Notes under the pieces: generated by a model | The model's database searches: none | Told to the model about the DNA's origin: nothing | What the model saw: only the letters and a program-made list of their open reading frames with translations | Position numbers and translations under genes: made by a program | From: Sphingomonas taxi | GTDB lineage: Bacteria; Pseudomonadota; Alphaproteobacteria; Sphingomonadales; Sphingomonadaceae | DNA: 64,000 nucleotides | Assembly: GCA_003243195.1 (NCBI GenBank) | Contig: QFQI01000010.1 | Coordinates: 13,196-77,195 of the forward strand | Direction of reading: 5' to 3' | Shown: positions 12,217-64,000 of the stretch, piece by piece | How positions within the stretch are numbered: position 1 is the first letter of the stretch | Layout of the letters: each line of letters opens with the position of its first letter

Positions 12217-13230
12217 ATGCACGAACTCGCCTTTCCGCTGCTGGTCGGCCTGATCGCGGTGGCGCTCGCCTTCGATTACCTCAACGGGCTGCACGACGCC
12301 GCCAACTCGATCGCCACCGTGGTCGCGACGCGGCTGCTGTCGCCGGTGCAGGCGGTGCTGTTCGCGGCCTTCTTCAACTTCGCCGCCTATTTCCTGACGC
12401 TCGCCATCCCGTCGCTGCACGCGGTGGCGGAGACGATCGGCAAGGGGCTGATCGCGCAGGATGTCATCACGCCCGCGGTGATCTTCGGCGCGCTGGGCGG
12501 CGCGATGACGTGGAACGTCATCACCTGGCTGAAGGGCATTCCGTCATCGAGCAGCCATGCGCTGGTCGGCGGCCTGATCGGCGCGGGCGTCGCGCATGCC
12601 GGGCTGACCGGCGTGCAATGGGCCGGGCTGAACAAGACGCTGCTGGCGATCGTGCTGTCGCCGACGATCGGCATGTTCCTGGCCATGGCGGTGATGCTGC
12701 TGTCGAGCTGGGCGTTGCGCCGCCGCACCGCCGCGCAGGCGGAGCGAAGTTTCCGTGCGCTGCACCTGCTGTCCTCCGCGGCCTATTCGCTCAGCCACGG
12801 GTTGAACGATGCGCAGAAGACGATGGGCATCATCACCGTGCTGCTTTATTCCACCGGCTATCTGACCGGCCCGTTCGAGGTGCCGCACTGGGTGGCGATC
12901 AGTTGCTATGTCGCGATCGCGCTGGGCACGATGACCGGCGGCTGGCGGATCATCGAGACGATGGGATCGCGCATCACCCGCCTGTCGCAGCATCAGGGGT
13001 TCAGCGCCTCGCTGGCCGGCTCGATCGTGGTGTTCAGCGCCTCGACGCTGGGCATCCCGGTGTCGACCACGCACACGATCACCGGATCGATCATCGGCGC
13101 GGGCGTGGCGCGGCGCGCCTCGGCGGTGCGCTGGGGCGTGGCGCAGAGCGTGGTGATCGCGTGGATCATCACCATCCCCGCCTCCGCGGCGGTCGGAGCG
13201 CTGGTCTATTCGACGACGTTGCTGTTCTGA
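12217..13230 (+). CDS. Inorganic phosphate transporter, PiT family
   Basis: ATG 12217 (MHELAFPLLVGLIAVALAFDYLNGLHDAANSIATVV). Second PiT signature NDAQKTMGII. Multi-pass membrane protein. Confidence 0.9.
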   Translation: MHELAFPLLVGLIAVALAFDYLNGLHDAANSIATVVATRLLSPVQAVLFAAFFNFAAYFLTLAIPSLHAVAETIGKGLIAQDVITPAVIFGALGGAMTWNVITWLKGIPSSSSHALVGGLIGAGVAHAGLTGVQWAGLNKTLLAIVLSPTIGMFLAMAVMLLSSWALRRRTAAQAERSFRALHLLSSAAYSLSHGLNDAQKTMGIITVLLYSTGYLTGPFEVPHWVAISCYVAIALGTMTGGWRIIETMGSRITRLSQHQGFSASLAGSIVVFSASTLGIPVSTTHTITGSIIGAGVARRASAVRWGVAQSVVIAWIITIPASAAVGALVYSTTLLF

Positions 13231-59647: not shown

Positions 59648-60732
59648 AGATCGCCTTCTACGGATCCAGCCTGCTGTCGTCCTACTGGAACGGTGCGGCG
59701 ACATACTATCGCGGCATCCTGCGCGCGCTGGGCGAGCGCGGCTACGACATCGCCTTCTACGAACCCGACGCGTTCGACCGCCAGCAGCACCGCGACATCG
59801 ATCCGCCCGCCTACGCCAGGGTCGTCGTCTATCCCGCGACGCCCGAGGCGCTGCGCGGGGTGCTGGCGGAGGCCGCCGACGCCGATGTGGTGGTGAAGGC
59901 CAATGGCGTGGGCGTGTTCGACCGCGAGCTGCTGGAGGGCATCATCGCGCACGCGCGGCCAGACGCGCTGAAGATCTTCTGGGACGTGGATGCCGCCGCC
60001 ACGCTGGACGAGATGCGCGCCGACCCCCACCATCCGGTGCGCGCCGCGCTGCCGCACCTCGACATGGTGCTGACCTATGGCGGCGGCGATCCGGTGGTGG
60101 ACGCCTATCGCGCATTCGGCGCGACGCTGTGCGCGCCGGTCTACAACGCGCTCGATCCGCAGACCCATCATCCGGTGCCCGCCGACGATCGCTTCGCCTG
60201 CGATCTCGCGTTCCTGGGCAACCGCCTGCCCGACCGCGAGGCGCGGGTGGAGGAGTTCTTCCTGCGCGCCGCGGCGCTGTTGCCCGGACGGCAGTTCCTG
60301 ATCGGCGGCAACGGGTGGGAGAGCAAGGCGATGCCCGGCAACGTCCGCCACCGTGGCCATGTCTTCACCGCCGAGCACAATGCCTTCAACTGCACGCCCA
60401 AGGCGGTGCTGAACGTCGCGCGCGATTCGATGGCACATATCGGCTTTTCGCCCGCGACGCGCGTGTTCGAGGCGGCGGGCGCGGCGGCGTGCCTCATCAC
60501 CGACGCATGGGAAGGGATCGAACTGTTCCTGACCCCGGACAGCGAAGTGCTGGTCGCGCGCGACGGGCAGGATGTCGCGGACCACCTCGCCGCGCTGACG
60601 CCGGCGCGCGCGCAGGCGATCGGACAGGCGGCGCTGCGCCGCGTGCTGGCCGAACACACCTATGACCTGCGTGGTGCGCAGGTCGACGCGCTGTTCCGGG
60701 CGCATGCCGCGCGGGCGCGGGAGGCGGCGTGA
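59644..60732 (+). CDS. CgeB-like glycosyltransferase, paralogue 2
   Basis: GTG 59644 (GTGA overlap). VKIAFYGSSLLSSYWNGAATYYRGI and RVFEAAGAAACLITDAW. The 1003-aa ORF in the track is a 5' extension. Confidence 0.65.
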   Translation: MKIAFYGSSLLSSYWNGAATYYRGILRALGERGYDIAFYEPDAFDRQQHRDIDPPAYARVVVYPATPEALRGVLAEAADADVVVKANGVGVFDRELLEGIIAHARPDALKIFWDVDAAATLDEMRADPHHPVRAALPHLDMVLTYGGGDPVVDAYRAFGATLCAPVYNALDPQTHHPVPADDRFACDLAFLGNRLPDREARVEEFFLRAAALLPGRQFLIGGNGWESKAMPGNVRHRGHVFTAEHNAFNCTPKAVLNVARDSMAHIGFSPATRVFEAAGAAACLITDAWEGIELFLTPDSEVLVARDGQDVADHLAALTPARAQAIGQAALRRVLAEHTYDLRGAQVDALFRAHAARAREAA

Positions 60733-61817
60733 TGAAGCTGGTCGTCCTGGGCCTGTCGCTCAGCTCCAGTTGGGGCAACGGCCATGCCACCACCTTCCGC
60801 GCGCTGCTGCGCGCGTTCGCGGCGCGCGGGCATGAAGTGCTGTTCCTCGAACGCGACATGCCCTGGTATGCCGATCACCGCGACGAACCGGCGCCCGATT
60901 ACTGCCGCCTCGACCTGTACGACAGCCTCGACGCGCTGGAAGGCTGGCGCACGGAGATCGAGCAGGCCGATGCGGTGATGGTCGGCTCCTATGTGCCCGA
61001 CGGCATCGAGGTGGGACGGCTGGTGCAGCGATGGGCGCGCGGCGTCACCAGCTTCTACGACATCGACACCCCGGTGACGCTCGCCCGCCTCGTGCGCGGG
61101 ACGTGCGACTATGTCTCGGCGGCGGTGATCCCCGGCTATGACATCTATTTCTCGTTCACCGGCGGTCCCACGCTGCGGCTGATCGAGGAGCGTTATGGCG
61201 CGCCGGCCGCGCGTGCGCTTTATTGCTCGGTGGACGCCGACCGCTATCGCCCGACCGGCGCGGCGGCGCGCTGGGACCTGTCGTATCTCGGCACCTACAG
61301 CGACGATCGCCAGCCGACGCTGGAACGGCTGCTGATCGAGCCGGCGCGCCGCCACCCCGACCGGCGTTTCGTCGTCGCCGGCCCGCAATATCCCGCCACG
61401 ATGGACTGGCCCGGCAATGTCGAGCGGATCGAGCATCTCGCGCCGGCCGACCATGCCGATTTCTACTCCGCGAGCCGCGCGACGCTGAACGTCACGCGTG
61501 CGGACATGATCGCGGCCGGCTGGTCGCCATCGGTGCGGCTGTTCGAGGCGACCGCCTGCGGCACGCCGATCGTGTCGGATCGCTGGCCGGGCATCGAGGA
61601 GCTGCTGACCCCCGGCAGCGAGATCCTGCTCGCCGACAGCGGCGCGGACGTGGACGCGGCACTCGCCCGCGACGACCTCGCCACGATCGGCGCGGCGGGG
61701 CGCGCGCGCGTGCTGGCCGAGCACACCGCGCGTCACCGTGCCGCGGAGCTGGAGTCGCACCTGCGCGAAGCGGCCGCGGAACGCGCGGCGCCGATCGGCG
61801 CACGGGTCGTCATCTGA
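60729..61817 (+). CDS. CgeB-like glycosyltransferase, paralogue 3
   Basis: GTG 60729 or ATG 60732, overlapping the upstream stop. MKLVVLGLSLSSSWGNGHATTFRAL and RLFEATACGTPIVSDRW. Confidence 0.65.
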   Translation: MMKLVVLGLSLSSSWGNGHATTFRALLRAFAARGHEVLFLERDMPWYADHRDEPAPDYCRLDLYDSLDALEGWRTEIEQADAVMVGSYVPDGIEVGRLVQRWARGVTSFYDIDTPVTLARLVRGTCDYVSAAVIPGYDIYFSFTGGPTLRLIEERYGAPAARALYCSVDADRYRPTGAAARWDLSYLGTYSDDRQPTLERLLIEPARRHPDRRFVVAGPQYPATMDWPGNVERIEHLAPADHADFYSASRATLNVTRADMIAAGWSPSVRLFEATACGTPIVSDRWPGIEELLTPGSEILLADSGADVDAALARDDLATIGAAGRARVLAEHTARHRAAELESHLREAAAERAAPIGARVVI

Positions 61818-62008
61818 GCGGCGCTTCGCCGCAAGGTGTCGCCGCCTAGCCCCGGGCGACACGGTCGCGACGGCGGCGCCCGGGATCACCAAGGCTTTCG
61901 CGACGGGCCGACCCGCCGCCAGCATTAGGACGATGCGCTCGGCCAGCGTCGCGGTGACATGGAGTAAGGAAGGCGGCGGCGAGCCCATCTGCCTGCGCTC
62001 CTACAATG

Positions 62009-62035
62009 AAAAAGGCCAGCGCCGTAGCGCTGGCC
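62009..62035 (-). terminator. Rho-independent terminator oriented on the minus strand
   Basis: Minus strand: GGCCAGCGC-TACG-GCGCTGGCC followed by TTTTT. The plus strand has only TTATCT after the stem. Confidence 0.75.
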
Positions 62036-62160
62036 TTATCTGGTGCGTACTGACGCTTGTTAACCGCCAGACCGCGATCTCTGAGCCTTCAGAATAGCTA
62101 TGCTCATGCGCGGGTCAAGGCATTTTCCGTATCGCGTCCGAAACGGCGCTGATCGTAAGG
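62009..62160 (-). ncRNA. Candidate tracrRNA (5' end uncertain), divergent from cas9
   Basis: There is no minus-strand ORF here. Minus-strand read: ..GGAAAAUGCCUUGACCCGCGCAUGAGCAUAGCUAU UCUGA-AGGC-UCAGA (hairpin 62080-62093), a second stem UCUGG..CCAGA (62039-62071), then the terminator hairpin plus U5. This layout matches anti-repeat, nexus and 3' hairpins. Confidence 0.4.
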
Positions 62161-62309
62161 CGCTGGCCAGTGGTCCACGCGTGCCGGGTCAACGGCCTAG
62201 CAGGCGATGCGCGCCGGATGGCGATTGACGCCCTCTCCCCGTTCGCCATCATCGCACCGGAATGGCCGCAACTCGGCTTGGCGAACGGTGCGTGGGGAGA
62301 AATGACCGC

Positions 62310-64000
62310 ATGGCGGGAGGCGACGTGACGAACTGGCGTCTGGGTATCGACTTGGGGACGAACTCGCTCGGCTGGGCGGCGCTGCGGCTTGGCGCTGACG
62401 GCCGGCCGGCCGGCATCATTGCGGCGGGCTCCCGTATCTTCTCGGACGGACGCGATCCGAAATCGGGTGCGTCACTGGCGGTGGACCGCCGCGAGGCACG
62501 CGCGATGCGGCGGCGGCGCGACCGCTTCCAGCAGCGCCAGCGCGCGTTGATGAAATATCTGGTCGCCGACGGCCTGTTCCCCGCCGAGCGCGAGGAACGG
62601 CGCGGGCTGGAAACGCTCGATCCGTTCATGCTGCGCGCAACCGCGCTGGACGAGGCGCTGCCGCTCCATCACCTCGGGCGCGCGATCTGGCACCTCAACC
62701 AGCGGCGCGGCTTCAGGTCGAACCGCAAGACCGATCGGCCCGACGACGACAGCGGCAAGATCAAGGTCGCGGTCGGGCGACTGCGCGACGCGATGGATGC
62801 GGCGGGCGCGCGCACGTTCGGCGAGTGGCTCCACCAGCGCCGTCAGCCGAGCGAGGACCATCCCGACGGCCTGCCCGTCCGCACCCGGCTGCGCGCCGAG
62901 CCGGGCGACAATGCCAAGGGCACCGGCTATGATTTCTATCCCGATCGCGCATTGCTGGAGGATGAGTTCGACGCGATCTGGTCCGCACAGGCCGAACATC
63001 ATCCCGACGTGCTGACCCCGGAGGTGCACGATCGCCTGTACGAGATCGTCTTCCATCAGCGCCCGCTGAAGACGCCGCAGGTCGGCACCTGCACCTTCGG
63101 CAGCGGCGAGCCACGATTGCCCAAGGCGCACCCGCTGTTCCAGCGTCGCCGGCTGCTGGAGGAACTCAATGCGCTGAGGATCGTGCGCGCCGGGCAGGTC
63201 GCCGAGCGGCTGACCCCCGAGCAGCGCGACCTCCTGCTGCTGAAGCTGAAGAGCAAGGGCAAGGTCAGCTTCGAGAGCCTGCGCAAGGTGCTGAAGCTCG
63301 ACCCCGACGCGCGCTTCAACAAGGAGAGCGAGAACCGCACCGAGTTGAAGGGCGACGAGGTGGCGGCGGCGATGCTGACGAAGACGCGGCTCGGCAACCG
63401 CTGGGAACATCTGTCGCCGGACGAGCAGTGGGAGGTCATCGAGCGGCTGGAAAGCGCCGAAAGCGACGAACAGGTCGAGGCGTTCCGGGCATGGGTGGCG
63501 ACGCGGTTCGATCTCAGCGGCGAGCAGGCCGTGGCGATATCGGCGGCGCGTCTGCCGCAGGGCCATGGACGCTTCGGCGAGACCGCCACGCGCGGGCTGA
63601 TCGACGCGCTGACGCATGATCGCGACCCTGACGGCCGCGTGATCGTCTACAGCGAGGCGGTGGCGCGGCTGGGCTATCACCACAGCGACTTCCGCACCGA
63701 CCAGACTTACGACGAACTGCCTCCCTACCCCGAGATCCTCGAACGCCACCTCATGCCCGGCAGCGGCGATCCGGCGGAAAAGGATATCTTCAAGCGGCTG
63801 GGCCGGCTCACCAACCCGACCGTCCATATCGGGCTGAACCAGTTGCGACGCACCGTCAACCGCCTGATCGCGCACCATGGCCGCCCCGCCGAGATCGCGA
63901 TCGAGCTGGCGCGCGAGCTGAAGCTGACCGAGGACGAGAAGAAGGAGCTTGGCCGCCGCAACCGCCAGAACCGCGAGGAGGCCGAGCGGCGATCGCGCGC
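62310..64000 (+). CDS. cas9: CRISPR-associated endonuclease Cas9, N-terminal ~563 aa (type II, probably II-C); continues beyond the window
   Basis: Frame open from the stop at 62226 to 64000. ATG 62310 follows a GGGGAGA RBS. MAGGDVTNWRLGIDLGTNSLGWAAL (RuvC-I, Asp14), Arg-rich bridge helix DRREARAMRRRRDRFQQRQRAL, FHQRPLKTPQVGTCTF, LTNPTVHIGLNQLRRTVNRLI, and EIAIELAREL (RuvC-II). Confidence 0.9.
   Translation, partial: MAGGDVTNWRLGIDLGTNSLGWAALRLGADGRPAGIIAAGSRIFSDGRDPKSGASLAVDRREARAMRRRRDRFQQRQRALMKYLVADGLFPAEREERRGLETLDPFMLRATALDEALPLHHLGRAIWHLNQRRGFRSNRKTDRPDDDSGKIKVAVGRLRDAMDAAGARTFGEWLHQRRQPSEDHPDGLPVRTRLRAEPGDNAKGTGYDFYPDRALLEDEFDAIWSAQAEHHPDVLTPEVHDRLYEIVFHQRPLKTPQVGTCTFGSGEPRLPKAHPLFQRRRLLEELNALRIVRAGQVAERLTPEQRDLLLLKLKSKGKVSFESLRKVLKLDPDARFNKESENRTELKGDEVAAAMLTKTRLGNRWEHLSPDEQWEVIERLESAESDEQVEAFRAWVATRFDLSGEQAVAISAARLPQGHGRFGETATRGLIDALTHDRDPDGRVIVYSEAVARLGYHHSDFRTDQTYDELPPYPEILERHLMPGSGDPAEKDIFKRLGRLTNPTVHIGLNQLRRTVNRLIAHHGRPAEIAIELARELKLTEDEKKELGRRNRQNREEAERRSR

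Follow-up and report, generated by a model that had tools for sequence, protein, structure and literature searches.

An intact type II-C CRISPR-Cas locus of Sphingomonas with a predicted divergent tracrRNA and a spacer matching the host hemE gene

The type II-C CRISPR-Cas system of Neisseria meningitidis, as it is generally known, combines a compact Cas9, the gene order cas9-cas1-cas2, a Cas1 of the NMENI type, and the lack of csn2 and cas4 with an array of 36-nt repeats and ~30-nt spacers. In the RNA orientation its repeat starts with GTTG and ends in a −10-like box, its crRNAs are read from the strand opposite the cas genes, and its PAM is N4GATT; a promoter in each repeat is the arrangement known from Neisseria-type II-C arrays. 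The Sphingomonas locus analyzed here is like the Neisseria system in its Cas9, gene order, Cas1 type, absence of csn2 and cas4, repeat and spacer lengths, and repeat ends, and in the predicted direction of its crRNAs. It differs in that the −10 box is TATAGT with a TGGACC −35 box and no extended −10, in that the predicted tracrRNA gene lies upstream of cas9 and is divergent, and in that the tentative PAM is NGNNRG. The stretch of DNA that was analyzed (the window) is 64,000 nt long and corresponds to positions 13196–77195 of contig C25, which extends 5.5 kb past it, in a 3.31-Mb genome assembled in 28 contigs. We put at about 95% the probability that the window ends, on its right, with the 5′ half of cas9 from an intact, canonical type II-C adaptive immune locus.

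Solved Cas9 structures provide a second point of comparison. The best phmmer match (195 bits, the top score) is 9ar4_A, a 1082-aa Cas9 that we take, from its sequence, to be that of Geobacillus stearothermophilus. The RuvC-I, bridge helix, RuvC-II, HNH, and RuvC-III motifs of the two proteins align residue for residue, the DxG, IELARE, DH..P...N, and HHAxDA motifs coinciding, but only residues 25–366 and 511–837 of the Sphingomonas protein are covered, and neither the REC lobe insertions nor the PAM-interacting domain can be aligned by sequence. PDB 6jdq and its relatives, which we believe to be Nme1Cas9, are distant matches (E ~2e-54, two local stretches).

Much closer relatives are plentiful. 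More than 4000 Cas9 homologs were found, and Cas9-annotated orthologs at 63 to 77% identity are common across the Sphingomonadaceae, where proteins from Sphingomonas, Sphingobium, Novosphingobium, and Sandaracinobacter are identical to this extent over their full length and carry the same Pfam domain set. The relatives share the cas9-cas1-cas2-array order, repeats of one 36-nt family (...CTCAGAGATCGCGGTCCARCGGCAAC), and a tracrRNA that is located upstream and is divergent. They differ in spacer content, which is unrelated, and in the PAM-interacting C-terminal region, which is at most 76% identical, so that their PAMs may differ as well. Hundreds of close relatives of the locus are already in public databases, and it is an ordinary, uncharacterized member of a well-known Cas9 family. 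A literature search found no characterized Sphingomonas Cas9, no PAM of such an enzyme, and no biochemistry of any member of the clade; the present analysis defines for this biochemically unstudied group a Cas9, a predicted tracrRNA, a repeat orientation, and a tentative NGNNRG PAM.

The cas9 gene was at first concealed, because the window ends inside it. An open reading frame (ORF) listing that included open-ended frames confirmed the plus-strand frame that the earlier note had proposed, with a stop at 62226–62228 and no further stop through position 64000; its first ATG, at 62262, gives 579 aa with an open 3′ end. Reading onward in contig C25 revealed neither a stop codon nor a frameshift, and the unbroken ORF encodes 1109 aa from the ATG at 62262 or 1093 aa from the ATG at 62310, in keeping with the ~1000–1100 aa anticipated by that note. 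The ATG at 62310, the position at which the earlier note began the gene, is the likelier start, since it is preceded at a distance of 11 nt by GGGGAG and since the 1093-aa product is the one that gene callers give for the identical protein. The same region is covered by an antisense ORF (62472..63878, minus strand, 468 aa), which does exist but overlies the true cas9 and is, as had been claimed, a shadow ORF and an artefact rather than a gene. A second long antisense ORF (60660–61988, minus strand, 442 aa) lies over the last glycosyltransferase gene; both are typical of high-GC DNA and neither is a gene. The annotation of this end of the window is thereby settled: the frame at its edge is a real and complete cas9, and a tracrRNA can be placed upstream of it (Table 1).

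Family membership is clear even from the part of Cas9 encoded within the window. Taken by itself, this part reaches 338 bits (E 1.4e-100) with TIGR01865, the NCBIfam equivalog for Cas9, whose cut-off is 100 bits; the score is far beyond chance, and the alpha-helical lobe of Cas9 is also recognized by its Pfam model. The complete protein reaches 570 bits with TIGR01865, over residues 26–999, and 265 bits with the PADLOC Cas9 models. Every motif quoted in the earlier note was located, in the order given there: in the numbering of the 1109-aa form, from the 62262 ATG, these are IDLGTNS at 29–35, the bridge helix RREARAMRRRRDRFQQRQ at 76–93, FHQRPLK at 264–270, TNPTVH at 517–522, and IAIELARE at 545–552. 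The two domains that the note expected beyond position 64000 are also present, with Pfam HNH_4 at residues 622–675 (E 2.7e-21), between RuvC-II and RuvC-III, and Pfam RuvC_III at residues 715–848. The catalytic residues of the split RuvC domain (I, II, and III) are D30 in IDLGTNS, E548 in IAIELARE, and H791 and D794 in HHAIDA, and those of the HNH domain are H643 within EIDHILP and N657 within DDSNANKLL. RNA-guided, PAM-dependent double-strand cleavage of DNA is the putative activity of the protein, supported indirectly by the flank positions common to perfect phage protospacers (see below).

The genes that complete the locus follow immediately. Directly downstream of cas9 are cas1 and cas2 and then the CRISPR array, all of them past 64000 as foreseen, so that the layout is tracrRNA on the minus strand, cas9, cas1, and cas2 on the plus strand, and the array. 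Cas9, Cas1 (NMENI type), and Cas2 all exceed curated cut-offs in NCBIfam, Pfam, and PADLOC, the PADLOC type II Cas1 and Cas2 models concurring with the NCBIfam calls, and a search of the genome found its sole cas1 to be the one beside cas9. No csn2 or cas4 was detected around cas9 or among the genes called at the identical locus in the metagenome assemblies L264 and L265, where the flanks consist of glycosyltransferases upstream and QueH, cytochrome c, and other genes downstream. The absence of csn2 and cas4, together with top structure matches that are compact Cas9s of ~1050–1150 aa, assigns the locus to subtype II-C, the subtype that the earlier note had suggested. The reading of the feature as a degenerate or orphan Cas9 remnant, with a frame broken after 64000, no HNH domain, or no cas1, cas2, or array, could be entertained only while the gene was seen as far as the window's end, and nothing was found in its support. 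When the contig was extended, none of these defects appeared: the ORF is intact, both nuclease domains are there, the two adaptation genes and 43 repeats adjoin it, and an identical Cas9 protein has been kept on 8 independent metagenome contigs from several samples. The remnant reading is refuted.

Table 1. Features of the Sphingomonas type II-C locus and of a prophage matched by its spacers (positions are those of the window unless a contig is named)
Feature	Position	Strand	Basis and remarks
tracrRNA, ~78 nt	62008..62085	−	Predicted; anti-repeat GGCUCAGAGAUCGCGGUCUGGCGGUUAAC, small hairpin, terminator hairpin and U tract
tracrRNA intrinsic terminator	62012..62037	−	11-bp stem with 8 G-C pairs, then UUUUU
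tracrRNA promoter-like site	62091..62118	−	TTGACC-16-TATTCT; consensus scan
Promoter-like site before cas9	62225..62252	+	TTGACG-16-CATCAT; consensus scan only, function putative
cas9, 5′ 564 codons	62310..64000	+	Profile hits and motifs; gene ends at C25:78786, extrapolated window position 65591
cas1, 313 aa	C25:78796-79737	+	TIGR03639 cas1_NMENI, 224 bits; begins 9 nt after cas9
cas2, 112 aa	C25:79734-80072	+	TIGR01573; GTG start overlaps cas1 stop
CRISPR array	C25:80146-82687, then C24:21-321		36-nt repeats; starts 72 nt after cas2
Prophage with protospacers	G514:C12:61582-67364 (= L273:5582-11364)		Same-genus genome

The tracrRNA was located through its complementarity to the repeat. Of the sequence beyond the array, the segment that matches the repeat best occupies ~62055–62076 of the minus strand (scan window 62031–62090), in the gap upstream of cas9, and this anti-repeat lies between a promoter-like site and an intrinsic terminator, which together define a predicted tracrRNA of ~78 nt whose 5′ end is placed from the position of the promoter. 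In this region the scan detected two promoter-like sites, against 0.1 expected from shuffled sequences. In 10 related loci the anti-repeat is conserved in position, strand, and sequence and covaries with each locus's own repeat. Folding of the aligned tracrRNAs gave two hairpins with 23 pairs, 7 of which show compensatory changes, and the terminator stem (alignment columns 70–95) is among the places where compensatory changes occur across the relatives. The crRNA:tracrRNA duplex is predicted to comprise 26 bp with two G-U wobbles and one bulge, at −78 kcal/mol. A search of Rfam gave no match at threshold, the sub-threshold hits being leader-like and overlapping the tracrRNA terminator.

The strand of the tracrRNA dictates that crRNAs must be read from the minus strand. 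The repeat, which is ACTATAGACCCTCAGAGATCGCGGTCCAGCGGCAAC on the plus strand (36 nt), becomes GUUGCCGCUGGACCGCGAUCUCUGAGGGUCUAUAGU in the RNA orientation, and every repeat scanned carries on the minus strand the promoter-like sequence TGGACC-16-TATAGT, which ends at the last base of the repeat. Fifteen such sites were counted in two scanned stretches, in each of which 0.2 were expected. In several relatives the final three bases of the repeat vary, hence a weaker −10 box. The ends of the tracrRNA and crRNAs and the promoters in the repeats are predictions.

The array is divided between two contigs: C25 carries 39 repeat copies before it ends, and the first part of C24 carries another 5. In full, the array has 43 repeats, all identical and 36 nt long, and 42 spacers of 29 to 32 nt. 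The order was confirmed by the independent metagenome scaffold L264, which encodes an identical Cas9 and spans the entire array. The assembly broke inside the array because spacer 38 of C25 and spacer 3 of C24 (C24_sp3) differ by just 2 nt; the break falls at C25:82622-82699 and C24:1-321, and the final 12 nt of C25 repeat the start of C24 spacer 4. Contigs from different samples (L264, L265, and L266) vary in the array at its cas2-proximal end and nowhere else. There, L264 and L266 each have two different new spacers; L265 lacks spacers 1–4 and 9. This restriction of the variation indicates that new spacers are added beside cas2. At the strain level, spacer turnover takes place at the cas2-proximal end only, although crRNAs are read from the opposite strand. 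In three Logan assemblies (L268–L270) the array is collapsed to one repeat, which looks like an assembler artefact.

Several spacers derive from phages. A prophage in another genome of the same genus (Table 1) has, in its large terminase gene, 30/30 matches to both spacer 27 and C24 spacer 2, and spacer 27 has a second 30/30 match on the IMG/VR contig L104. C24_sp3 (27/30) and its near-twin spacer 38 (25/30) correspond to a head protease/major head gene, and since both match the same gene they represent one site that was acquired twice, from two different variants of the phage. For spacer 14 the match is to a P2-type major head gene, at 29 of 30 positions. A control search with reversed spacers returned no hits. 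The genes that contain these perfect or near-perfect protospacers (terminase, head protease/major head, and P2-type major head) belong to the same-genus prophage and to L104 and L185, two uncultivated viral contigs of IMG/VR, and all three are candidates for phages that naturally infect this Sphingomonas lineage. The Sphingomonas genome itself had no prophage of the targeted types, and no match to any of the 42 spacers was found in the GenBank phage collection. Both the targeting of phages and the turnover of spacers at the leader end can be read clearly from the array, as from a natural record.

The perfect phage protospacers of the array spacers have flank positions in common. Four independent 3′ flanks (CGCAAG, TGGCGG, GGGCGG, and CGGCAG) agree in a G at both +2 and +6 and in a purine at +5, from which we tentatively propose the PAM NGNNRG. 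The searches of phage and plasmid databases contributed nothing to this motif. This motif occurs at ~4.5–5% of positions in this DNA, and we estimate the chance of obtaining it at ~0.02, with post hoc choice allowed for and two positions invariant. Two further sources of flanks were set aside. Hits of spacer 3 (26–27/30) in three same-genus genomes had inconsistent flanks and lay in GC-rich, low-complexity sequence, and pooling the spacers of relatives was dropped given PAM-interacting domains that are at most 76% identical. When the 277 spacers of 11 related arrays were compared with this genome and with the viral contigs, all matches were short and attributable to chance.

When the spacers were compared with 400 genomes of the family, the hits were for the most part 23-nt identities to spacer 14, of which a stretch of 22 to 23 nt is identical to sequence in ~100 Sphingomonadaceae genomes. 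In the Sphingomonas genome the partial match (22/30, C19:95802-95824) lies in aroB (3-dehydroquinate synthase), at a VGGKT motif, and the actual target of the spacer, the P2-type capsid gene, encodes the similar peptide KQVGGKTAI. The widespread partial matches, of which the copy in this genome was located, were judged to be chance or motif-level similarities and were rejected as protospacers. In one genome, G343, weak spacer matches were not clustered in prophages.

By analogy with Neisseria-type II-C systems, we infer how the locus would be expressed, its crRNAs formed, its PAM read, and its targets cleaved. Each repeat would supply its own minus-strand promoter, so that each unit of spacer and repeat could yield a short crRNA, which would pair through its repeat with the anti-repeat of the tracrRNA. 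Cas9 bound to this duplex would find DNA complementary to the spacer beside a 3′ PAM, tentatively NGNNRG, and its HNH and RuvC domains would cut both strands of the target, while Cas1-Cas2 would extend the array with new spacers on the side of cas2.

One spacer matches the genome that carries it. Spacer 17 (C25:81238-81269) is 32 nt long, an atypical length, and is identical at 32 of 32 positions to C21:457964-457995, on the sense strand of the single-copy gene hemE (uroporphyrinogen decarboxylase; Pfam URO-D, E 2e-109). It is retained in the independent scaffold L264, and at least 16 younger spacers separate it from the leader end; taken together, these observations indicate that it has long been tolerated while adaptation continued. 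In the 3′ flank of the hemE site, GCCGCG, positions +2 and +5 are both occupied by C, so that the +2 G and the +5 purine found in all four phage protospacers are absent. A conserved alanine codon (GCN) sets the C at +2 in every hemE relative that was examined, so the site never had the motif of the phage targets. Because this flank does not fit the tentative PAM, spacer 17 is probably a harmless, aberrant 32-nt acquisition made without a PAM, on which Cas9 would be unable to act.

Another possible reading of a perfect self-match in a gene of an essential pathway is that interference has been turned off or is inhibited; spacers that target their own genome, where the cas genes are intact, are known as a sign of anti-CRISPRs. 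A system intact in sequence but silenced, by an unrecognized anti-CRISPR or for want of expression, would tolerate such a spacer, and both the completeness of the match to a single-copy gene and its persistence in a second, independent assembly agree with this. We nevertheless regard it as unlikely, given that the hemE flank departs from the phage-target motif at a position fixed by its codon, that the genome harbors no prophage of the targeted kinds, and that the newer spacers and the strain-variable leader end show adaptation to have been active after spacer 17 was acquired. Should the proposed PAM be wrong and hemE be cleavable, a case that we consider unlikely, the locus would conceal an unrecognized form of self-tolerance, for example a new type II-C anti-CRISPR or Cas9 silencing, and the hemE-tolerating strain would then be a lead to that mechanism. 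In either event the stable hemE spacer offers a simple test case for distinguishing PAM-based self-tolerance from anti-CRISPR activity.

A regulatory, nonimmune role has proposed precedents in repression by Francisella Cas9 and RNA targeting by Campylobacter Cas9, and here it would have a hemE-matching crRNA tune the expression of hemE. The perfect match is the one observation in its favor, whereas the hemE mRNA and the spacer part of the crRNA are both of the sense strand and cannot pair, which excludes RNA targeting of hemE by spacer 17, and no fitting PAM, which DNA binding would need too, adjoins the hemE site. As spacer 17 is also one spacer among 42, and of unusual length, in an array in which other spacers are plainly anti-phage, a regulatory function is very improbable, and a harmless acquisition remains the preferred explanation of the spacer. 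Against plasmids, the sole hit of the 42 spacers was again to hemE, at 31 of 32 positions of spacer 17, on a 404-kb Sphingopyxis indica replicon listed as a "plasmid" (NZ_CP076395.1:308476-308507); that it carries hemE suggests a chromid rather than a typical plasmid.
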